From an uncultured Candidatus Saccharibacteria bacterium (lineage in GTDB: Bacteria > Patescibacteriota > Minisyncoccia > Phycocordibacterales > UBA9973), in the NCBI GenBank assembly GCA_964634365.1, contig CAZWJU010000001.1, positions 167,028 through 231,027 of the forward strand: DNA of 64,000 bases. The letters are read 5' to 3'. Below are positions 3,961-48,149 of this stretch, piece after piece (within the stretch, counting starts at the first letter, position 1; each line of letters opens with the position of its first letter). The position numbers and the translations under genes were made by a program. Below the pieces are notes generated by a model. That model did no database searches. It saw nothing but the letters and a program-made list of their open reading frames with translations, and was not told the DNA's origin.

Positions 3961-5772
3961 ATGAATATAAAAAATAAAGAAAAAAAATTGGCTTTCAAGG
4001 ATTACAGAGACGGCATTAGAACAATCTGGCAGTTGATCACGGTGAAATACAAAAGAGAAATCTGGACACTTGTGATACTGTCTTTTTTTATTGCCATACT
4101 CGACGGTATAGTACCTCTCATATCTGGTAACTTCTTCGATAGACTCGTAGAGGTCAAAACAAATGCGAGCGCCGTATGGATATCGCTTGGCGTATTGATT
4201 GTAGTCACAACCATATCTTCTTTTGGTCAAAGATGGAAATACACTAAAAGCGACCTGGTAAACTACAAAATCATAACTGACTACCATGCAAATGTTGCAG
4301 CGAAACTTGTTCGTCTACCTATGTCATATCTAAACAGTAGACCGATGAGTGAGATCGAGCAAAAGTGCCAAAGAGCAGGGAACAATCTCGAGAACATGTT
4401 CCGAGATGTTTTAATAGAAATTCTTCCTGCTTTTTTAGGTATAATCGTAGCTTTTGTAACGGTCTTCACTATCAACACAACACTTTCGCTTATACTTCTC
4501 GGCGGGGTCTTGGCTTACATACTCGTAATACTGCAAACAGTGGGAGATGGTGCAAAGCTCCAACGCGAAAACCAGAAGCAATGGGTTAACGCATGGATCG
4601 CAAGATCAGATGGCTTGTACAATATTCCAACAGTAAAACAATTTGCTGCCGAAGATTTTGAAACAGAAAAAAATAGAAAGAACTTTACGGAAAAAGTCTT
4701 TGGTGCGCAGTTTAATCTCTGGAAGATGTGGAGCAAGATAAATCTCTGGCAGAAAATTATTATCTTGGTTACACAAACTATTGTTCTGTCTATGTCAGTA
4801 GGGTTTCTAAAAAACGATATTCTCTCTGCCGGACAAGTGATAGCTTTCAATGCTTATGTTGGTATGGTGTTTGGTCCGTTTTTACGCATGGGAAATATGT
4901 GGCGAACAATCCAAAATTCGATCATCAACGTACATGATGCAAACGAAATACTATCCATGACACCAGAAGATTATACGAAAGACAGCGCTGCTGCTAAAAA
5001 AATTAGCGGTGAAGTTGAGTTTAGGGGTGTCACTTTCTATCACGATGAGAGAAAAGTTATTTTGGACAATTTAAACTTCAAGGCAAAAGCCGGTTCTGTT
5101 GTCGCCTTTGTCGGTAAAACTGGATCAGGTAAAACATCTCTTACAGAACTAATATACCGATTCCACGAACCAACAAAAGGAGAGATCCTTGTAGATGGCA
5201 TAAATATTGGCGAATACAATCTAACATCTCTAAGATCTCAAATTGGAATCGTTCCACAAGAGCCTGTTCTTTTCGATTCAACTATCCGAAACAACATAAT
5301 GTATCCAAAAAGTAAGGTTAGTCAAAAAATTCTTGATGAAGTTGCTCGCAAGGCAGATTTGCTTGAATTCATAAAAGATCAACCTGATGGATGGGATACG
5401 GTAGTTGGAGACAGAGGCGTAAAACTATCTGGTGGACAACGCCAACGTATTGCAATCGCTCGAGCACTCTTGGCGAATCCTAAAATTTTAATTTTAGATG
5501 AATCTACATCAGCACTTGATGCAGAAACTCAGAAAAAAATTGAAGATTCTCTAAGGGAGCTCATGAAGGACAAAACTACTTTCATAGTTGCACACAGACT
5601 TAGTGCGGTACGCGATGCAGACAAAATATGTGTACTCCACAAAGGCAAGATTGTCGAAGAAGGAAATCATGAGGAGCTAATACAGATTCCAAATGGACGA
5701 TACAGAAAACTATATGAACTTCAGTACAGAGAAGCAGAGATAATCGAAGCTGAAAAAGTACTAGAAGAATAA
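3961..5772 (+). CDS. ABC exporter, fused permease/ATPase (MsbA/multidrug-like)
   Basis: A six-TM N-terminal half is followed by Walker A GKTGSGKTS, the LSGGQRQR signature and Walker B ILILDE. Confidence 0.85.
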   Translation: MNIKNKEKKLAFKDYRDGIRTIWQLITVKYKREIWTLVILSFFIAILDGIVPLISGNFFDRLVEVKTNASAVWISLGVLIVVTTISSFGQRWKYTKSDLVNYKIITDYHANVAAKLVRLPMSYLNSRPMSEIEQKCQRAGNNLENMFRDVLIEILPAFLGIIVAFVTVFTINTTLSLILLGGVLAYILVILQTVGDGAKLQRENQKQWVNAWIARSDGLYNIPTVKQFAAEDFETEKNRKNFTEKVFGAQFNLWKMWSKINLWQKIIILVTQTIVLSMSVGFLKNDILSAGQVIAFNAYVGMVFGPFLRMGNMWRTIQNSIINVHDANEILSMTPEDYTKDSAAAKKISGEVEFRGVTFYHDERKVILDNLNFKAKAGSVVAFVGKTGSGKTSLTELIYRFHEPTKGEILVDGINIGEYNLTSLRSQIGIVPQEPVLFDSTIRNNIMYPKSKVSQKILDEVARKADLLEFIKDQPDGWDTVVGDRGVKLSGGQRQRIAIARALLANPKILILDESTSALDAETQKKIEDSLRELMKDKTTFIVAHRLSAVRDADKICVLHKGKIVEEGNHEELIQIPNGRYRKLYELQYREAEIIEAEKVLEE

Positions 5773-11855: not shown

Positions 11856-12914
11856 ATGATAATAAATATAATCAAAGTATTTATACCAACCACAATAGCA
11901 TTCTTCTTAGGTATAGGGATGACCCCCTTCCTGATGCGTTTTTTTATAAAAAATAGACTTTGGAAAAGACATGCTAGAAGCGACGAATCTATCAACGCAG
12001 ATAAAATTTCTCCAACATTCTCTGCTCTACACAATACAAAAGAAGAGCTCGCCACTCCAAGAATTGGCGGGGTCATAATATGGCTTGCAACACTTGGAAC
12101 GGCGCTCATAATATTTTTGATATCAGTCTTTGTACCAAACGAACTAACAGACAAACTCAATTTTATAAGTAGAAATCAAACCCTACTCTTGTTGTTTGCG
12201 ATGCTTATATCTAGTCTTATAGGTTTAACAGATGACCTACTGACTATTTTTGCCAAACCAGGTGTTTTTGCAAATGGATTTCCTAGAAAATACATGGTCT
12301 CAATCGTCTTGCTTATCGGACTGATTGGTGGTTTGTGGTTTTACTATAAACTTGGAATATCAACCATAGCTATACCTGTTCTAGGGATACTTCCATTTGG
12401 TGTATTCTTCATACCAATATTTATGGCTGTTATATTTGCAGTTTTTTCAAGTGGAGTGATCGATGGCATAGACGGCCTAGCAGGAGGTGTTATGGCAACT
12501 ATATTTGGAGCATACGGAACAATTGCACTTCTACACAATCAAGTTGATATAGCAGTATTTTGCGCTGTTGTAACTGGAGCTATACTATCTTTTTTATGGT
12601 TCAATATTCCTCCAGCAAGATTTTATATGGGGGAGACAGGAATGCTTGGACTCACGGTAACTCTAACTATAGTGGCATTTTTAACAGATACAGTTCTACT
12701 ACTTCCAATAATTGCTTTCCCTCTATTTGCAACAGCACTATCATCAGCAATACAAATATTTTCAAAGAAATATTTCAATAAAAAAATATTCAAAGTTGCA
12801 CCACTGCACCATCACTTTGAAGCGCTCGGATGGTCAAGAGCAAAAATAACAATGAGATACTGGGTAATATCTGTAATATTTGCAATTATAGGAATAGTTC
12901 TATCTCTACTATAA
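11856..12914 (+). CDS. mraY: Phospho-N-acetylmuramoyl-pentapeptide transferase
   Basis: The product is a polytopic membrane protein with the PLHHHFE signature. Confidence 0.9.
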   Translation: MIINIIKVFIPTTIAFFLGIGMTPFLMRFFIKNRLWKRHARSDESINADKISPTFSALHNTKEELATPRIGGVIIWLATLGTALIIFLISVFVPNELTDKLNFISRNQTLLLLFAMLISSLIGLTDDLLTIFAKPGVFANGFPRKYMVSIVLLIGLIGGLWFYYKLGISTIAIPVLGILPFGVFFIPIFMAVIFAVFSSGVIDGIDGLAGGVMATIFGAYGTIALLHNQVDIAVFCAVVTGAILSFLWFNIPPARFYMGETGMLGLTVTLTIVAFLTDTVLLLPIIAFPLFATALSSAIQIFSKKYFNKKIFKVAPLHHHFEALGWSRAKITMRYWVISVIFAIIGIVLSLL

Positions 12915-12916
12915 AA

Positions 12917-14029
12917 ATGTCTAAATCTGGTAAGAATTCAATAGACAAAGTTTTCTTAGGGATTGTTGTGGCTTTAGTTATTTTTGGTTTAATATCTTTT
13001 ATATCTGCATCTTTAGGAATACTAGCTAAAAACGAAGAGAAATTTTACGGAGTATTGTTCAACCAGCTCGTACTTGGTCTCTTAGGTGGATCTATCGCAC
13101 TTTTGGTCTGCATGAAATACAAATATGATTTCTGGAGAAACAATTCTTTTTTAATATTTTTAGGATCAATTGTATTAACTCTACTTGTTTTTGTACCAGG
13201 CCTTGGGCTTAGTCACGGAGGAGCAAGGCGCTGGATTTCAATTTTTGGATTCTCTTTGCAACCAGTAGAATTCTTGAAAATTGGTTTTGTTATGTATTTT
13301 GCGGCTTATTTATCTTGGATAAAAAGCAAAGTTTCGGATTATAAATTCAGCATACTTCCTCTAGTATTGATGATTGGTGTTATTGCTTCTGTGCTACTAG
13401 CTCAACCAGACACAAAAAGTCTTATGCTCATAATAGCCGTAGGTGCATCTATGCTTTTTGTATCTGGTATACCGATAAAATACATAGTCTTACTAGTTTC
13501 TATTGCTGCGGCTGGTCTTATAGCGCTGGCTATGTTTACTCCTTATCTAACGGAACGCATAGAAACTTTTCTAGATCCAAGTAGTGACCCTAGCAACTCA
13601 TCTTATCAGCTCCAACAATCACTGATTGCTATAGGATCAGGGGGTATGTTCGGACGAGGCTTGGGACAGAGTATTCAAAAATTTAGCTATCTACCAGAAC
13701 CACAAGGTGACTCTATATTTGCAGTTATAGGAGAAGAATTCGGTTTTGTGGGATCTGTATTGTTGCTTGTACTGTACGTGGCTTTTGTCATGCGAGGACT
13801 ACATCTCGCATACAGAGCACCGGATTCTTTTAGTAGACTTTTTATAGTTGGAATTGTTATACTTTTTGGAGCACAATCTTTGCTGAACATAGCATCTATA
13901 GTAGGACTGTTTCCACTCACAGGAGTTCCGCTTGTTTTTATCAGTCACGGAGGAACATCCTTGCTTATTTCACTGGCTTCGATTGGTATAATACTAAACA
14001 TGTCAAAATATCAACGCAAAATTAATTAA
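12917..14029 (+). CDS. ftsW: SEDS-family peptidoglycan polymerase FtsW/RodA
   Basis: The product is a 10-TM SEDS protein. The start was set at MSKSG, 3 nt after the mraY stop. Confidence 0.85.
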   Translation: MSKSGKNSIDKVFLGIVVALVIFGLISFISASLGILAKNEEKFYGVLFNQLVLGLLGGSIALLVCMKYKYDFWRNNSFLIFLGSIVLTLLVFVPGLGLSHGGARRWISIFGFSLQPVEFLKIGFVMYFAAYLSWIKSKVSDYKFSILPLVLMIGVIASVLLAQPDTKSLMLIIAVGASMLFVSGIPIKYIVLLVSIAAAGLIALAMFTPYLTERIETFLDPSSDPSNSSYQLQQSLIAIGSGGMFGRGLGQSIQKFSYLPEPQGDSIFAVIGEEFGFVGSVLLLVLYVAFVMRGLHLAYRAPDSFSRLFIVGIVILFGAQSLLNIASIVGLFPLTGVPLVFISHGGTSLLISLASIGIILNMSKYQRKIN

Positions 14030-14032
14030 TTT

Positions 14033-15160
14033 ATGAGAATACTATTTACAGGAGGAGGAACCGGTGGGCACTTTTACCCAATAATCGCAATCGCCGAAGC
14101 ATTGAACAAAATAGCAGATGAAGAAAAGATTTTAAAATCTGAACTTTACTATATGTCTACTGAGCCTTATGACAAACAGGCACTTTTTGAAAACAATATA
14201 AAATTTATACAAGTAAACGCTGGTAAACTTCGTATATATCCTTCTCTTAAAAACATAACTGACATTTTTAAAACAGCAACAGGATGTATGGAGGCTGTTT
14301 TCAAGATATTTGCCCTGTATCCTGATGTGGTCTTTGGTAAAGGTGGTTTTGCTAGTTTCCCAGCATTGTTTGCTGCAAGAATTCTGCGCATACCAGTAGT
14401 TATACATGAATCAGACTCTGCTCCTGGTAGAGTAAACAAATGGGCAAGTAAATTTGCGAAACGTATCGCAATATCTTTCCCAGAAGCCATAGAGTCTTTC
14501 CCAAAAAACAAAACTGCTTGGACAGGTCAGCCTGTTCGCAGAGATATATTGCGAGGAGTAAAAGAAGGTGCACATGAATATTTTGGATTTGATCAAAATA
14601 TCCCTGTAATACTAATCCTAGGAGGTTCACAAGGTGCACAAAAAATAAACAATGCGCTTATAGACGCACTACCTGTTCTCTTGCCAAATTTTCAAATAAT
14701 TCACCAAGTTGGTCCAAAAAATATCGAGGATATTACAGAGACTGCAAACGTAATCATCGCAAACAACGAATTCAAAAAAAGATACAAGCCTATCGGATTC
14801 CTAAGCCCGCTTGCAATAAAAATGGCTGCCGGTGCTGCAAACATAATAGTATCTAGAGCTGGTTCAACTATTTTTGAAATAGCTGGCTGGGGAGTGCCTT
14901 CGATTATAATTCCTTTCGACAAATCAAACGGAGATCATTCTAGAAAAAATGCATACACTTATGCAAGAAGTGGTGCATGTGAAGTAATAGAAGAAACCAA
15001 TCTTTCTCCAAACTTACTCGCTGCAGAAATAACTGCAATAGTAGGGGATAGTACAAAAATAGAAAAAATGAAAAAAGCCGCACAAGATTTTGCACGACCT
15101 GAAGCAGCAAGTTCTATCGCACGAGAAATAATAAATCTAGCACTAAAACACGAACAATAA
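14033..15160 (+). CDS. murG: UDP-GlcNAc:lipid I GlcNAc transferase MurG
   Basis: The product has the GGTGGHFYP motif and a GT28 fold. Confidence 0.9.
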   Translation: MRILFTGGGTGGHFYPIIAIAEALNKIADEEKILKSELYYMSTEPYDKQALFENNIKFIQVNAGKLRIYPSLKNITDIFKTATGCMEAVFKIFALYPDVVFGKGGFASFPALFAARILRIPVVIHESDSAPGRVNKWASKFAKRIAISFPEAIESFPKNKTAWTGQPVRRDILRGVKEGAHEYFGFDQNIPVILILGGSQGAQKINNALIDALPVLLPNFQIIHQVGPKNIEDITETANVIIANNEFKKRYKPIGFLSPLAIKMAAGAANIIVSRAGSTIFEIAGWGVPSIIIPFDKSNGDHSRKNAYTYARSGACEVIEETNLSPNLLAAEITAIVGDSTKIEKMKKAAQDFARPEAASSIAREIINLALKHEQ

Positions 15161-15199
15161 AAAAGCCACCTGATCATATAGTGAGATCGGTGGCTTTTA
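15159..15199. terminator. Bidirectional intrinsic terminator (murG on the plus strand; candidate sRNA on the minus strand)
   Basis: The sequence AAAAAA-gccacctgatcatatagtgagatcggtggc-TTTT forms the terminator. Confidence 0.7.
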
Positions 15200-15298
15200 G
15201 GCATTCGGGTTTTGTTACACCCGAGGGGTACCTCCACTGTCAGTTTACTAAGACACCACAACCGGGAGGGTCGTTGCGGTTCCTGCGCTCAGATCTGT
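15159..15298 (-). ncRNA. Candidate small RNA (GC-rich, ~140 nt) of unknown class
   Basis: A minus-strand promoter TTGACT-17-TGcTACTAT (-35 at 15334..15329, -10 at 15310..15305) precedes a GC-rich segment with hairpin cgggt-gtaacaaa-acccg. The unit ends at the terminator shared with murG. Confidence 0.35.
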
Positions 15299-15374
15299 TT
15301 CCAATATAGTAGCATATTATAAATATTAAGTCAAGTATATTTAAAAAAGCCTTATAATTTGGTATACTTTTCAA

Positions 15375-16817
15375 ATGTCTACACAAAAGAAAGTTGTAAC
15401 TCGTTTTGCTCCAAGTCCAACTGGCTTTATGCATATTGGAGGTGTTCGCACTGCACTTTTTGCATGGGCTTTTGCTCGTAAAAATAACGGTACTTTTATA
15501 TTGCGAATCGAGGACACAGACAAAGCTCGTGAAGTAGAAGGTTCAATCGAACACATAATAAAATCACTGAAGTGGCTTGGTATAAGCTGGGATGAAGGAG
15601 TAGATATAGGAGGTCCGAATGCGCCATACCTACAGTCTGAAAGACTAGACTCTTATAAAAAATACGCACAGATTTTGATTGAAAAAGGTTTAGCTTATGC
15701 AGATCCGTACACAGAGGCAGAAGTAGAAGAGTTCAGAAAAAAATCCGAAGCAGAGAAAAAACCTTTTCTGTTTCGTGACTACAGACCTATAAATCCGCCG
15801 GCTTGGGATGGAACTATGCCACTTCGTCTAAAAGTTACAGATATAAAATCTTATCATTGGACAGATCTGGTAAGGGGCGAGCTTTCTGCTGGACCTGAAG
15901 CAGTCGATGATATTATTTTGATAAAAAGCGATGGATATCCAACATACAATTTCGCTCACATAATAGACGACCTAGAGATGGGTGTAACTCATATTATGCG
16001 CGCCGATGAGTTTATCTCATCGACTCCAAAGTTTTTGTCTATTTATGATGCACTTGGAATTGAGCGCCCTCTATTTGCAACCCTTCCGCCAATTATGTCT
16101 CCAGACGGCAAGAAAAAACTTGGTAAGCGTGATGGAGCAAAAGACATACTAGACTACAAAGAAGAAGGATATTTGCCTGAAGCTATGATAAATTTCCTTG
16201 TCTTTATAGGTTGGAATCCAGGAGATGAGCGCGAGATCATGACACCTGGTGAATTTATAGAAGCTTTTGAAATAGATAAAATTCAAAAATCAGGCGGGGG
16301 ATTCAACATAGAAAAACTAAACTGGATAAATCGCGAGCATATTAAAAAACTAAGTGACGAAGAATTTTTAAATAAAATTCAAGAATACATCCCTGAAAAT
16401 TTTAGAAGTAAAATTGAAAAAAATATTTCTGTTCTTATAAAAGAAAGGGTAGAAAAATTTTCTGATATAAAAAATATGTTTGAAAAAGGGGAATTGGATT
16501 ATTTTTTCGACAGACCAAAATACGACCCAAGCAAGTTGATATTCAAAGACTCTACAAAAGAAAGTATTACTGAAAATCTAAAGCATGGATACGACCTATT
16601 GAACAGTATAGAAGAGAAAAACTTCAATCTAGATTTTATAAAAGATACAATGATGAAAAGTCTAGAAAAAGAAAAGCGCGGACCAACCCTTCACCCTATA
16701 CGCATAGCACTATCTGGACTTGATCAATCCCCAGACCCATTTACCATCTCATCGATATTGGGTAAAAAAGAAACACTAGAACGTATCCAAACTGCAATAG
16801 AATCGCTTGTAAATTAA
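15375..16817 (+). CDS. gltX: Glutamyl-tRNA synthetase
   Basis: The product has PSPTGFMHIGG (HIGH) and KLGKR motifs. A TATAAT -10 lies at about 15353. Confidence 0.9.
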   Translation: MSTQKKVVTRFAPSPTGFMHIGGVRTALFAWAFARKNNGTFILRIEDTDKAREVEGSIEHIIKSLKWLGISWDEGVDIGGPNAPYLQSERLDSYKKYAQILIEKGLAYADPYTEAEVEEFRKKSEAEKKPFLFRDYRPINPPAWDGTMPLRLKVTDIKSYHWTDLVRGELSAGPEAVDDIILIKSDGYPTYNFAHIIDDLEMGVTHIMRADEFISSTPKFLSIYDALGIERPLFATLPPIMSPDGKKKLGKRDGAKDILDYKEEGYLPEAMINFLVFIGWNPGDEREIMTPGEFIEAFEIDKIQKSGGGFNIEKLNWINREHIKKLSDEEFLNKIQEYIPENFRSKIEKNISVLIKERVEKFSDIKNMFEKGELDYFFDRPKYDPSKLIFKDSTKESITENLKHGYDLLNSIEEKNFNLDFIKDTMMKSLEKEKRGPTLHPIRIALSGLDQSPDPFTISSILGKKETLERIQTAIESLVN

Positions 16818-16826
16818 GATTATAAT

Positions 16827-18140
16827 ATGAATTTTAAAAATAACACCAAAACAATTGTCTTTACGGTAATTATATTTGTGTTGTTTTTGTCTTTTGTAAT
16901 TAACAAAGCAGATGCCGATATAGCTAGCGACTTATCATCTAAAATAGAATCTCACACGAACGAAATAGACAAACTAGAAGCTGAAATAGCTAAATATCAA
17001 ACTGAATTAAACAATACGAGTAAAAATGCTCTATCTTTAAAAGGATCCATCAATGAACTCGATATATCAAAGAAAAAATTACAAGCTGAAATATCAGTCA
17101 CTGAAAATAAAATAAGCTCAACAGAGCTACGCATTCAGAAACTTAGCCTAGATATTGGAGACAAATCAAAAACTATAGATGTAAACCAACTTGCCATAGC
17201 TAGAAACATAGCAAAGATACATGAACTAGACTCAAACCCTCTAATCGTAACAATGCTTTCAAACGAACGCATTGCTGATGTATGGAATGAAATAGAGTCT
17301 TTAAAACGCATACAATCTGATGTGTACGACCACACTAAAGATGTTATAGCTGTACGCCACGGGCTCGAAGGTGATCGCAATGAAGAATTGGAAGCAAAAG
17401 AAGAGCTACTAGCTTTAAAAGATGAACTGAACGGTCAGAAGAAAGTTTTAGACATAAATATTAAAGATAAAAATAAATTACTTAGTGAGACAAAAAATCT
17501 AGAGTCAAATTACAAAAAGATATTGGCTGATAAGCTTGCGCTGAAAGCAGCTTTTGAAAAAGAACTTCAAGATTATGAATCTCAATTAAAATACGTACTA
17601 GATCCTAGTAAGATACCAACAAGAGGATCTCATGCACTCGGATGGCCACTTACAAACGTATTCATAACTCAAATGTTCGGAAAAACTGTAGACTCCGTAA
17701 GACTCTACACATCTGGATCACATAGTGGAACTGATTTTAGAGCTAGTATCGGAACACCAGTGCTAGCTATGGCAAGCGGTACAGTCGTGGAGAGCGGAGA
17801 TACAGATGCGACTTGCCGTGGTGCATCTTTTGGAAAATGGGTATTTATAAAATATGACAATGGATTGGCTAGTACATATGGACACTTGTCTTTAGTAAGT
17901 GCCAAAAATGGTGCGAGAGTAACACCAGGCCAAATCGTAGCTTATAGTGGAAACACAGGACACTCTACAGCACCACACTTGCATGTTAGTTTATATCCTA
18001 GTGATGCTGTGGACGTATCAGGAAAAGAAAGTATTGCTTGTAAAGGAAAAATACTTGTACAACCGAGAGCTGCGACAAATGCCTATTTAAACCCGCTAGA
18101 TTATATGCCAAGCTACACAAGCTCTATGATTAAAAGCTAA
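16827..18140 (+). CDS. Murein hydrolase activator/peptidase, EnvC-like coiled coil plus C-terminal M23 (LytM) domain
   Basis: A signal anchor and long coiled coil are followed by an M23 domain with HSGTDF and HLHVSLY motifs. Confidence 0.8.
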   Translation: MNFKNNTKTIVFTVIIFVLFLSFVINKADADIASDLSSKIESHTNEIDKLEAEIAKYQTELNNTSKNALSLKGSINELDISKKKLQAEISVTENKISSTELRIQKLSLDIGDKSKTIDVNQLAIARNIAKIHELDSNPLIVTMLSNERIADVWNEIESLKRIQSDVYDHTKDVIAVRHGLEGDRNEELEAKEELLALKDELNGQKKVLDINIKDKNKLLSETKNLESNYKKILADKLALKAAFEKELQDYESQLKYVLDPSKIPTRGSHALGWPLTNVFITQMFGKTVDSVRLYTSGSHSGTDFRASIGTPVLAMASGTVVESGDTDATCRGASFGKWVFIKYDNGLASTYGHLSLVSAKNGARVTPGQIVAYSGNTGHSTAPHLHVSLYPSDAVDVSGKESIACKGKILVQPRAATNAYLNPLDYMPSYTSSMIKS

Positions 18141-26161: not shown

Positions 26162-26210
26162 GGATTTATTTTAACAAAAAACAACCCAAATTATAAGTAT
26201 TTTTAGATAC

Positions 26211-26239
26211 TTGACAAATGCATATAAATATGCTATACT
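26211..26239 (+). promoter_or_regulatory. Consensus promoter TTGACA-17-TGcTATACT (extended -10)
   Basis: The sequence ttgacaaatgcatataaatatgctatact matches the consensus exactly. Confidence 0.6.
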
Positions 26240-26245
26240 TCTTCT

Positions 26246-26385
26246 AGATGTTTAACACACCGGTTCATATCTATCTTTGTCGTTGGGACTTTGAGCTGTA
26301 GCTCACCCCAACTTCATGGAGAGGCCTAAGAAACCTCTCGTCAACTCACGGCTGCCCGATCAAAAGGGCGGCTTTGTTTTTATTT
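26246..26385 (+). ncRNA. Candidate small RNA 1 (~140 nt), unknown class
   Basis: The unit has its own consensus promoter, a nested hairpin gttggg..gagct-gt-agctc..cccaac, a hairpin gagagg-cctaagaaa-cctctc, and an intrinsic terminator ggctgccc-gatcaaaa-gggcggc plus a T-tract. There is no plausible ORF. Confidence 0.45.
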
Positions 26386-26398
26386 AAAATTAGTATAC

Positions 26399-26427
26399 TT
26401 GACAAATAAATACTAATATGCTATGAT
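26399..26427 (+). promoter_or_regulatory. Consensus promoter TTGACA-17-TGcTATGAT (extended -10)
   Basis: The sequence ttgacaaataaatactaatatgctatgat matches the consensus. Confidence 0.6.
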
Positions 26428-26433
26428 ATAGGC

Positions 26434-26555
26434 ATACTCGTACAAATGAACGCGAACATAAAATGCCGTGGACCCACAGTCTCGGCAAAAAACCTAGAGG
26501 GATAAAACCCTCAATCGACTCACAGCTATCCCGTAAGATGGCTGTGTTTTTTTAT
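26434..26555 (+). ncRNA. Candidate small RNA 2 (~120 nt), paralog of sRNA 1
   Basis: It shares the 3' architecture of sRNA 1: hairpin gaggg-ataaaa-ccctc, then tcgactcacagct, then terminator cagctatc-ccgtaa-gatggctg plus T8. Its T-tract overlaps the stop of convergent trhO. Confidence 0.45.
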
Positions 26556-27445
26556 TTAGCCAAAACTTTTTCAGTTTTTTTAGACAGACAGTCTTCCGAG
26601 CAAAACCCTTCCCCATTTTCTGTTAGACAATTTTCACAACATATAAAATGTTTGTGACAAAGTAGGTTCCCGCAGTTCACATAATTTTCTGAAGTGCTGC
26701 CACAGTTGTCACACTTTCCTATTGCCTCATGACTGTCGCCATCGAAGTGCATTACTTTTCTTTTATCAAAAACATAGAGGCTTCCTTTGAAATTTTCTCC
26801 TGGATATTTTTCCATATAACTTACTATTCCTCCATCGAGCTGATACACATCTTCAAATCCAACTTTCTTCAAAAATCCTGATGCCTTTTCGCATCGCACT
26901 CCACCAGTACATACTGTTAGTACAGTTTTGTCTTTTAGATCTTTGAGCTCATCTACCTTTTCTCGTAAGTCACGAAAATTTTCAAGCCCTGGGAAAATAG
27001 TTCCTTCGAACTTTCCACTTTTAAGCTCGTAGTCATTTCTCATATCAACAATATAAAAATCTTTGTTTTCTTCATACCATTTTTTCAAATCTTCTGGCTT
27101 CAATCTTTTACCAGTGAGCTTGTTTGGGTTTATGTCACCCTCTTTACCTAAATGCAGAGAGACTATCTCGTCGCGCACTTTCACAGACAGTCTAGGAAAA
27201 GCATCGCCAGTCCCCTCACTTCTCTTCCAGTGAATATCGGAAAAACCCCGGCGCTTACTCATCCAAGTTACGTATTTTTCTATATTTTCACTCTCACCTT
27301 CAAGCGTAGCGTTGATACCCTCTTCTGCTACTATAGTGCGTCCAGTAAGCCCTAAAACCTCGCATATACCCCTCTGCATACCCATTTCAACCTTAGGGTC
27401 CTTGATTTTAGTGTATTTGTAAAAAAGTAAAACTGTATATTTCAT
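26552..27445 (-). CDS. trhO: tRNA uridine(34) hydroxylase, rhodanese-domain protein (UPF0176/YceA family)
   Basis: The product has LLFYKY and GINATL motifs, a rhodanese CTGGVRCE active site and a C-terminal Cys-rich tail. Confidence 0.8.
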   Translation of the reverse strand: MKYTVLLFYKYTKIKDPKVEMGMQRGICEVLGLTGRTIVAEEGINATLEGESENIEKYVTWMSKRRGFSDIHWKRSEGTGDAFPRLSVKVRDEIVSLHLGKEGDINPNKLTGKRLKPEDLKKWYEENKDFYIVDMRNDYELKSGKFEGTIFPGLENFRDLREKVDELKDLKDKTVLTVCTGGVRCEKASGFLKKVGFEDVYQLDGGIVSYMEKYPGENFKGSLYVFDKRKVMHFDGDSHEAIGKCDNCGSTSENYVNCGNLLCHKHFICCENCLTENGEGFCSEDCLSKKTEKVLAK

Positions 27446-47117: not shown

Positions 47118-47146
47118 AAAGGTCCCACTTGGGACCTTTTAATTTT
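47118..47146. terminator. Bidirectional intrinsic terminator
   Basis: The hairpin aaaggtcccacttgggaccttttaatttt forms the terminator. Confidence 0.7.
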
Positions 47147-48149
47147 ATCTCTTCAATATTTTCTCAATAGCATCTTTGATAGCATCTTTACCCATACCAT
47201 AATGCTCTATAAGCTCATTTGGAGTTCCAGACTGACCAAACTTATCTTTGACTCCTACAAATTCTATTGGCACCGGGAACTCTTCAGCTAAAACTTCAGC
47301 AACAGCAGAACCCATCCCGGCGCTTGCCTGGTGCTCTTCTACTGTAACTATTTTTTTTGTCTCTTTTGCGAGCGCCACAACTCCCTCACGATCAATAGGT
47401 TTTATAGTTGCTAAATTCATAACCTTTACCTTAATCCCCTTTTTTTCCAAATCGCGTGCTGCAAGTAGAGCATTGCGAACAAGAGCGCCTGTTGCAATCA
47501 CTCCAACATGAGCCACTCCCTCTGGTTCATAAAAAATCTGTGATCTACCAATTTGAAACGGGGTTTCGTCTGTAGTCATGATACCAGTCTTCTCGCGAGC
47601 AAGACGCAAATATGCAGGTTTACCAATTTTCGATAAAGCCACTGTCGCCTTGCGAGCCTCTATCGCATCGCATGGAGAGACCACGATCATGTTTGGCATT
47701 GCGCGCATGATTGCAATATCTTCGATCGCTTGATGTGTTCCACCGTCTGGTCCAACAGACACTCCAGCATGAGAGCCGACTATTACTACAGGTCTATCGT
47801 TGTAAGCTATGGTCGTACGAATCTGCTCCCAGTTTCTACCCGGACTAAACATCGCATAAGACGAACAAAAAGGGATCTTGCCCATCGCAGCCATACCAGA
47901 AGCTACTGTTACAAGATTTTGCTCAGCAACACCTATTTCTATAAATCTATCTGGAAATTTACTTTTAAATTTATCCATCTTGGTACTCTCGGTTAAGTCA
48001 GCACATAGGGCGACAACCCGATTGTTTTCTTCGGCTGCTTTTACAAGCCCATCTCCAAATCCCGCACGAATCGGAACTTGCTCCACATCGTCGTTCCAAA
48101 CTTTTGTGTTTAGTTTTAGTTTAGGGTTTAGCATTTTATTGATGTTCAC
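47145..48149 (-). CDS. Transketolase, C-terminal (pyrimidine-binding plus C-terminal domain) subunit
   Basis: This is a split transketolase that overlaps the N-terminal subunit gene. Confidence 0.9.
   Translation of the reverse strand: MNINKMLNPKLKLNTKVWNDDVEQVPIRAGFGDGLVKAAEENNRVVALCADLTESTKMDKFKSKFPDRFIEIGVAEQNLVTVASGMAAMGKIPFCSSYAMFSPGRNWEQIRTTIAYNDRPVVIVGSHAGVSVGPDGGTHQAIEDIAIMRAMPNMIVVSPCDAIEARKATVALSKIGKPAYLRLAREKTGIMTTDETPFQIGRSQIFYEPEGVAHVGVIATGALVRNALLAARDLEKKGIKVKVMNLATIKPIDREGVVALAKETKKIVTVEEHQASAGMGSAVAEVLAEEFPVPIEFVGVKDKFGQSGTPNELIEHYGMGKDAIKDAIEKILKR

Follow-up and report, generated by a model that had tools for sequence, protein, structure and literature searches.

A candidate lineage-restricted small RNA gene in the murG/gltX spacer of a low-G+C Patescibacterial genome

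The 214-nt spacer between murG and gltX in a 64-kb stretch of DNA (hereafter the window) from a low-G+C Patescibacterial genome very probably holds a genuine small RNA (sRNA) gene on the minus strand. There, positions 15159-15335 carry a full cassette: a promoter, a body of about 100 nt, and a hairpin followed by a U6 terminator. Such a gene, with a strong promoter and a terminator of its own, had been proposed in an earlier reading of this DNA made from the sequence alone, which also named an Rfam search, folding, and an examination of conservation and covariation as checks. All three agree with the proposal: no housekeeping RNA is matched, the minus strand folds better than its shuffled counterparts, and promoter and terminator are kept across relatives while two stems covary and their G.U pairs fix the strand. 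The fuller explanation advanced here, of a stand-alone, lineage-restricted structured sRNA gene acting in trans in a genome of the Paceibacterota/Minisyncoccota type, is given slightly better than an even chance, and base pairing in trans as its mode of action, which is argued by analogy with sRNAs of other phyla, an even chance at best. The regulatory and structured RNAs of the Patescibacteria (the candidate phyla radiation, CPR) are essentially uncharted, and full-text searching of one literature collection yielded nothing about sRNAs of Patescibacteria or Parcubacteria.

Transcription signals

The sequence-only reading had been drawn to this locus by a GC-rich stretch within an otherwise AT-rich spacer, a contrast that is borne out by composition: the G+C fraction is 0.55 across 15200-15299 beside 0.22 across 15300-15399, with the flanking genes at 0.35-0.42. 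A promoter scan of the minus strand places a -35 hexamer, TTGACT, at 15329-15334 (ACTTGACTT is invariant in 6/6 aligned copies) and an extended -10 element, TGcTACTAT, at 15306-15314, whose wider form ATATG.TA.TAT is kept in all copies. The two are separated by 17 nt, and the intervening sequence varies among the six aligned copies while the hexamers themselves are invariant. The same TTGACT-17-TGcTACTAT arrangement had been read from the sequence before, and both the motif and the -35 stand, but the -10 hexamer had been put at 15310..15305, 1 nt away from the actual TACTAT at 15311..15306. Matches to TTGAC-N15-TGnTAnnAT are rare enough to be informative: two were observed in the window against 0.09 expected, a count that none of 100 shuffles reached, and the other match precedes an sRNA candidate at 26.4 kb.

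At the opposite end of the cassette lies an intrinsic terminator (15159-15198, minus strand), formed by a hairpin at 15165-15194 (extended 15161-15198) with U6 at 15164-15159. Its 10-bp arms (15161-15170 and 15189-15198) are 100% complementary, and the murG stop codon (15158-15160) lies partly within the U-tract. Terminators differ in sequence from lineage to lineage, with hairpins of -14 to -17.5 kcal/mol followed in each case by U6-U8. Read on the plus strand, the hairpin runs into TTTT-AGG in the window, whereas two relatives that carry the element, L001 and L011, have no T-run there at all; the terminator is accordingly assigned to the gene on the minus strand. The earlier suggestion of a bidirectional terminator shared with murG thus survives for the minus strand, whilst bidirectionality is weak at best and specific to the window.

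Given this geometry, RNA polymerase would start about 7 nt past the extended -10 on the minus strand (the 5' end is placed 6-8 nt past it, at 15299-15302), transcribe about 140 nt, and stop at the hairpin and U6 that abut the murG stop codon. The predicted transcript (15159-15301, minus strand, about 141 nt) has its 3' end in the U-tract, and it is from promoter and terminator placement that we infer transcription of the locus as a ~140-nt RNA.

Conservation and strand

Relatives were collected with a MurG-based scan of one genome per species, giving 10 loci, and from Logan assemblies reached through a protein search and exact look-ups; the related assemblies derive from SRR17318452, SRR17347195, SRR11088447 and SRR11088468. 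The element is present in five sequence variants (the window, and metagenome-assembled genomes or assemblies with at least 85% MurG identity), without exception in the murG/gltX spacer and in one and the same orientation. Carriers are L001 at 85% MurG identity, L011 and L012 at 93%, and L013 and L014 at 92%. L001, the nearest public genome, is labelled Candidatus Paceibacterota (phylum Minisyncoccota in the NCBI taxonomy), and the next relatives after it are labelled Saccharibacteria or Nomurabacteria.

Four-fold degenerate sites of murG are near saturation, with 44% identical between the window and L001 and 29% invariant across the five sequences; by our own arithmetic, an invariant run of 10 nt at 0.29 per site has a chance of about 4e-6 per position. 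Purifying selection on the element is indicated because invariant blocks and compensatory stems persist while these four-fold sites are close to saturation. No open reading frame (ORF) on either strand is conserved across the variants, the frame shifting between conserved blocks; one plus-strand frame looks open but switches register between those blocks.

Both folding and base-pair content point to the minus strand. Its fold has z = -3.3, with 0/200 shuffles as good, against z = -1.7 for the plus strand. The alignment contains 15 G.U cells, and the structural model is 98% paired on the minus strand versus 84% on the plus strand; since G.U cells become A.C when read on the plus strand, the minus strand is taken as the transcribed one.

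Predicted structure

The best-supported part of the fold is P2, an 11-bp helix between GGAACCGCAAC (15273-15283, minus strand) and GUUGUGGUGUC (15252-15262), both placed by RNAalifold. Five of its 11 pairs show double compensatory changes and 96% of cells are paired; a control in which the partners are offset by 1 to 3 columns in each direction lowers pairing to 40-54%, with 0-2 double-change pairs. P2 is closed by a 10-nt, C-rich, anti-Shine-Dalgarno-like apical loop, GACCCUCCCG (15263-15272), in which a run of 8 nt, UCCCGGUU, is invariant (the conserved loop segment is also given as ACCCUCCCGG). Below P2, a short basal helix P1 may form between CUGA (15289-15292) and UUAG (15248-15251), beneath a conserved 5' bulge, AG..CAG. 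A P1 of 4-5 bp is possible in every variant, but as its register slips by 1 nt between lineages it is no more than plausible.

On the 3' side follows a conserved linker, AACUGACAGUGGAGG (15231-15245), which is mostly unpaired and includes the longest invariant run of the two, the 10-nt CUGACAGUGG. Loop and linker are predicted to be unpaired in every variant, the loop in both the minimum free energy structure and the ensemble in 5/5 variants. Within the linker, 15236-15244 (minus strand) holds an invariant quasi-palindrome, ACUG-A-CAGU, which could permit dimerisation of the RNA or serve as a protein site at the DNA level.

The hairpin cgggt-gtaacaaa-acccg picked out in the sequence-only reading corresponds to P3 (15205-15224, UCGGGU-GUAACAAA-ACCCGA), which begins exactly 6 nt past GGRGG in all variants. 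Of the five pairs that the variants share, three have substitutions in both partners (U-A/G-C, C-G/A-U/G.U and G-C/U-A), and the A-rich loop of P3 varies within the family between GUAACAAA, AUGAUCCAAA and AUAAUCAG. The P3 register was set by hand on GGRGG+6, as MAFFT shifts P3 in L011-L013 by 2 columns; a model-fitted alignment (A4) was not used for P3, its training alignment having carried the same 2-column shift. A variable linker and the terminator make up the remainder of the RNA.

The two conserved unpaired segments could also meet. GGAGG in the linker (15231-15235) is complementary to CCUCC in the P2 loop (15265-15269), and an H-type pseudoknot is conceivable: all 25 of 25 pseudoknot cells are paired, L001 has two one-sided changes (C-G to U.G and U-A to U.G), and no pseudoknot pair shows a double compensatory change across the five variants. 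Read from the sequence, the geometry would comprise an L1 of 3 nt, an S2 of 5 bp and an L3 of 12-16 nt over the 11-bp stem, which is feasible on steric grounds. A local UGGA-GGUA-UCCA hairpin, predicted over the GGAGG region in L011-L013, was considered as a family feature and rejected, being absent from the window sequence.

Comparison with known RNA families

At gathering score, Rfam 15 returned a single tRNA from the whole window, outside the element, and nothing from five related loci. At E<=10, the element as found in the window, L014 and L001 matched no model of the signal recognition particle (SRP) RNA, 6S RNA, T-box, riboswitch or ribozyme. Sub-threshold matches were all on the minus strand and to assorted trans-acting sRNA models; they reach at most 21 bits (41-111 being needed), fall to different families in each variant, and lie mostly over P3 and the terminator end.

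The resemblance to SRP/4.5S RNA (RF00169) is one of general character, the element being small, G+C-rich and preceded by a strong promoter. It differs in having neither a GNAR tetraloop nor helix-8 internal loops, and in not extending beyond a genus-level clade; its apical loops are the 10-nt GACCCUCCCG and an A-rich loop of 8-10 nt, and it is built of three separate hairpins, with no pairing of its 5' end to its 3' end. The earlier judgement that this is not SRP RNA was sound, there being no RF00169 match at E<=10 and no single long hairpin, and its decision to leave the class open is likewise consistent with the failure of all three variants to match any Rfam family. Two further candidates were set aside: 6S RNA (RF00013), which gives no match at E<=10 and has a rod with a central bubble where the element has a multi-hairpin fold; and a T-box (RF00230) or cis-acting leader of gltX, for which there is no match, only 84% pairing on the plus strand, and a gltX -10 situated downstream of the element.

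Closer parallels are found among stand-alone regulatory RNAs. RsaE/RoxS (RF01820) are sRNAs of Firmicutes with C-rich loops and several C-rich motifs. Like them, the element is a stand-alone gene of ~100-150 nt with its own promoter and terminator and an unpaired C-rich loop motif (here CCCUCCC) that could pair with G-rich or Shine-Dalgarno (SD)-like sites in mRNAs. Unlike them, it has no RF01820 match, a single C-rich motif and an additional complementary GGAGG, and it belongs to a host of an unrelated phylum that is almost without SD sequences. Yfr1 of cyanobacteria, ~50-65 nt in length, carries a conserved unpaired anti-SD-like motif between two hairpins, and the element similarly has its own promoter and a conserved single-stranded segment between two covarying hairpins; it is longer however, its conserved motif differs, and no Rfam match links the two. 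With a promoter of its own, a Rho-independent terminator, no conserved ORF and covarying P2 and P3, the element has the general attributes of a stand-alone sRNA gene and, to judge from sequence comparison, behaves like an orphan bacterial sRNA of the ordinary Rho-independent type, outside every catalogued family.

Distribution and origin

A covariance model of the element core (R1) scores the six copies at 85-115 bits. It detects no paralog in the window and, over ~215 kb of DNA from relatives whose MurG is 42-72% identical, no further copy, also when run with its filters off. Wider searches produced only spurious candidates. The pattern TCCCGGTT-N10-26-CTGACAGTGGRGG gave three matches among JGI metagenome contigs, all inside coding sequence and attributable to chance, and a looser pattern gave 27 matches among IMG/VR viral contigs, none scoring above 18 bits with the covariance model. 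No similarity to phages or plasmids was found by blastn. As far as these tools reach, the family appears to be confined to a genus-level clade.

In relatives without the element (L002-L005 and L015) the murG-gltX spacer is about 30-55 nt. The junction in L015 consists of a hairpin terminator and then a conserved gltX -10 (GCTATACT) just before the ATG; in alignment, this junction sequence corresponds to the cassette's right-hand edge (AAAAAAGCCTT.ATTTGCTATACT). On such alignments, the cassette reads as a lineage-specific insertion into a murG/gltX operon boundary that is a tight junction in other lineages. The whole cassette is flanked in the window, at 15158-15167 and 15342-15351, by a direct repeat of 10 nt, TAAAAAAGCC. 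This repeat is weaker in relatives (AAAAAAGC in L011, AAAAAA in L001), and in alignment its right copy falls on the murG terminator region of L015; because the repeat decays in relatives, it is probably not a target-site duplication.

The same junction is a hot spot of lineage-specific minus-strand insertions. Two relatives at 65-66% MurG identity have unrelated minus-strand ORFs there, comprising three small hypothetical ORFs at 10896-12197 in L046 (66%) and one ORF of 124 aa at 11173-11547 in L047 (65%); five other relatives are without any insertion.

Mode of action and alternative explanations

In the explanation favoured here, P2 forms a long bulged hairpin, on a possible short P1, that presents the C-rich loop, with P3, likewise supported by covariation, and the terminator behind it. 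The RNA would act in trans, with the loop and/or the linker pairing to G-rich sites in mRNAs encoded elsewhere, in which case sites complementary to ACCCUCCCGG or ACUGACAGUGG would be expected in orthologous mRNAs. Alternatively or additionally, CCUCC:GGAGG pairing may produce an H-type pseudoknot by which the seed is masked or presented.

Several observations weigh against this explanation, in whole or in part. The element is absent from the murG/gltX site in relatives at 72, 70, 58 and 53% MurG identity; the comparison comprises only five sequences from ~3 independent lineages within one genus-level clade, so that counts are indicative; and the covariation statistics are weak, with a shuffle control that ignores phylogeny. 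No seed complementarity of at least 8 nt lies near any start codon of the 64-kb window, and the best duplex energies computed over 72 start regions do not surpass those of shuffled seeds (fraction of shuffles at least as good: 0.54 for the loop, 0.91 for the linker). Loop and linker are complementary to each other, which suits folding within the molecule no less than it suits a seed for pairing in trans. The host itself offers little for an anti-SD loop to act upon: 59 of the 72 ORFs in the window have no SD-like motif, in a search biased towards finding one, and since the genome is SD-poor, blocking of SD sequences by the C-rich loop has few substrates. Hexamers resembling a -10 are commonest 6 nt upstream of the start codon (8 genes at that distance; 17 of 72 within 4-10 nt), a pattern that characterises the host genome, on sequence criteria, as SD-poor and rich in leaderless genes. 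The mRNA of gltX would be among these, because its own -10, TATACT at 15363-15368, lies downstream of the element and 6 nt before the ATG (15375); this -10 is conserved in L011 and L015. The sole ORF in the window with a perfect GGAGG before its annotated first start, a GTG, is at 47145-48149 on the minus strand (TTTAGGAGGCAAGATTAAAAGTG), an outlier where SD sequences are so scarce.

The main alternative, which the internal complementarity fits well, is that a pseudoknotted RNA works by shape, binding a protein or ligand as a lineage-specific ribonucleoprotein (RNP), with the A-rich linker along the P2 groove and, in one version, titrating the anti-SD of the 30S subunit through GGAGGU. In favour of this account, the two most conserved unpaired segments are mutually complementary, the L001 substitutions keep every cell paired, the geometry appears feasible, no mRNA target was detected in the window, and so strong an SD-like GGAGGU is unusual where almost no genes are SD-led. 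Yet the pseudoknot lacks any double compensatory change, a 5-nt complement to a 10-nt loop would arise within 40 nt by chance in ~20% of cases by our estimate, and the GGAGG region in L011-L013 has its local hairpin as a competing partner. Neither a riboswitch nor a ribozyme is matched in Rfam, and a narrow distribution speaks against a housekeeping RNP; a role by shape is rated as rather unlikely. A more specific proposal, that CCUCC:GGAGG is real and closes a new pseudoknotted fold, an internal SD/anti-SD mimic in a lineage that has all but given up SD-led initiation, acting either on the ribosome (as a decoy or sensor for the 30S anti-SD) or by binding a ligand or protein, is improbable. 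Were it to prove true, the element would be the first RNA class with a distinct function to be confined to Patescibacteria, and no ordinary sRNA of the mRNA-pairing kind.

The remaining explanations have far less to commend them. Patescibacterial RNAs are often atypical, and a strong promoter, a length of ~100-140 nt and high G+C are what a highly divergent SRP/4.5S or 6S RNA missed by Rfam would display; this is largely refuted already, with only a trace of probability left to it, as RF00169, RF00013 and every other family go unmatched at E<=10 in three variants, the GNAR tetraloop and helix-8 loops are missing, the ends form no rod, and relatives at 53-72% MurG identity have the element neither at the locus nor in the ~215 kb of their DNA searched. 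Position directly upstream of gltX, together with some folding on the plus strand (z = -1.7), would suit a cis-regulatory leader of gltX (T-box-like or an attenuator) or a murG terminator region on that strand. The change of 15 G.U cells to A.C with its loss of pairing, the orientation of conserved promoter and U-tracts towards the minus strand, the lack of a T-run after the hairpin in L001 and L011, the conserved gltX -10 beyond the element and the want of a T-box match make such a function hardly credible. Finally, the element might be no functional RNA at all, but either what is left of an inserted gene or mobile element in decay, or a gene for a small protein. The junction does take lineage-specific minus-strand inserts in relatives, and TAAAAAAGCC does flank the cassette in the window; however, the invariant blocks, compensatory stems and nearly saturated four-fold sites bespeak purifying selection, no ORF is conserved, no paralog exists in the window or related loci, phage and plasmid similarity is absent, and the repeat degrades to AAAAAAGC or AAAAAA in relatives, so that this too is very improbable.

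If transcribed, the element would offer a way into the post-transcriptional control of ultra-small symbiotic bacteria, and the candidate is well suited to experiment: its promoter is strong and conserved, its terminator is defined, two of its helices covary, and two exposed segments are invariant. A narrow, genus-level distribution restricts how far it matters. Two further candidates with similar promoters lie at 26 kb, and the three together would also hint at a small repertoire of strongly expressed sRNAs.

Related candidates and neighbouring genes

The candidates at 26 kb are two tandem sRNA-like genes on the plus strand, at ~26241-26385 and 26430-26556 (region 26195-26560), which fold well (z = -3.4 and -3.9) and have no Rfam match. 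Their promoters, ATACTTGACAAAT...AATATGCTAT, hardly differ from that at 15334-15306, with an almost identical context of ATACTTGAC...AATATGCTA, and their 3' layout of A-rich-loop hairpin, short linker and terminator is also that of the element; between themselves they share a 3' module in which the A-rich-loop hairpin is followed by ACUCAC and then the terminator. The 5' domains are unrelated to that of the element however, and its covariance model misses both at E<=10. The sequence-only reading had thought the UAA.AAA loop reminiscent of these hairpins, a likeness that proves superficial, as the loop varies within the element's own family.

Pfam confirms murG and gltX, the two neighbours named in that reading, and the genes beyond them. 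Upstream of the spacer lie mraY, ftsW and murG (14033-15160), and downstream gltX (15375-16817) and an M23 peptidase, all on the plus strand. In the relative L046, a D12-class methyltransferase lies beside a TIR-domain protein (16262-17917), and an IS200/IS605 Y1 transposase is encoded at 4334-4984; genes of defence or mobility may be represented here, unrelated to the sRNA element. In the window, the longest ORF for ftsW (12830-14029, plus strand, 399 aa) overlaps the end of mraY (11856-12914, plus strand) by 85 nt. In relatives ftsW is called at 368-370 aa with its start directly after mraY, and the true start in the window is probably ~29 codons further downstream.

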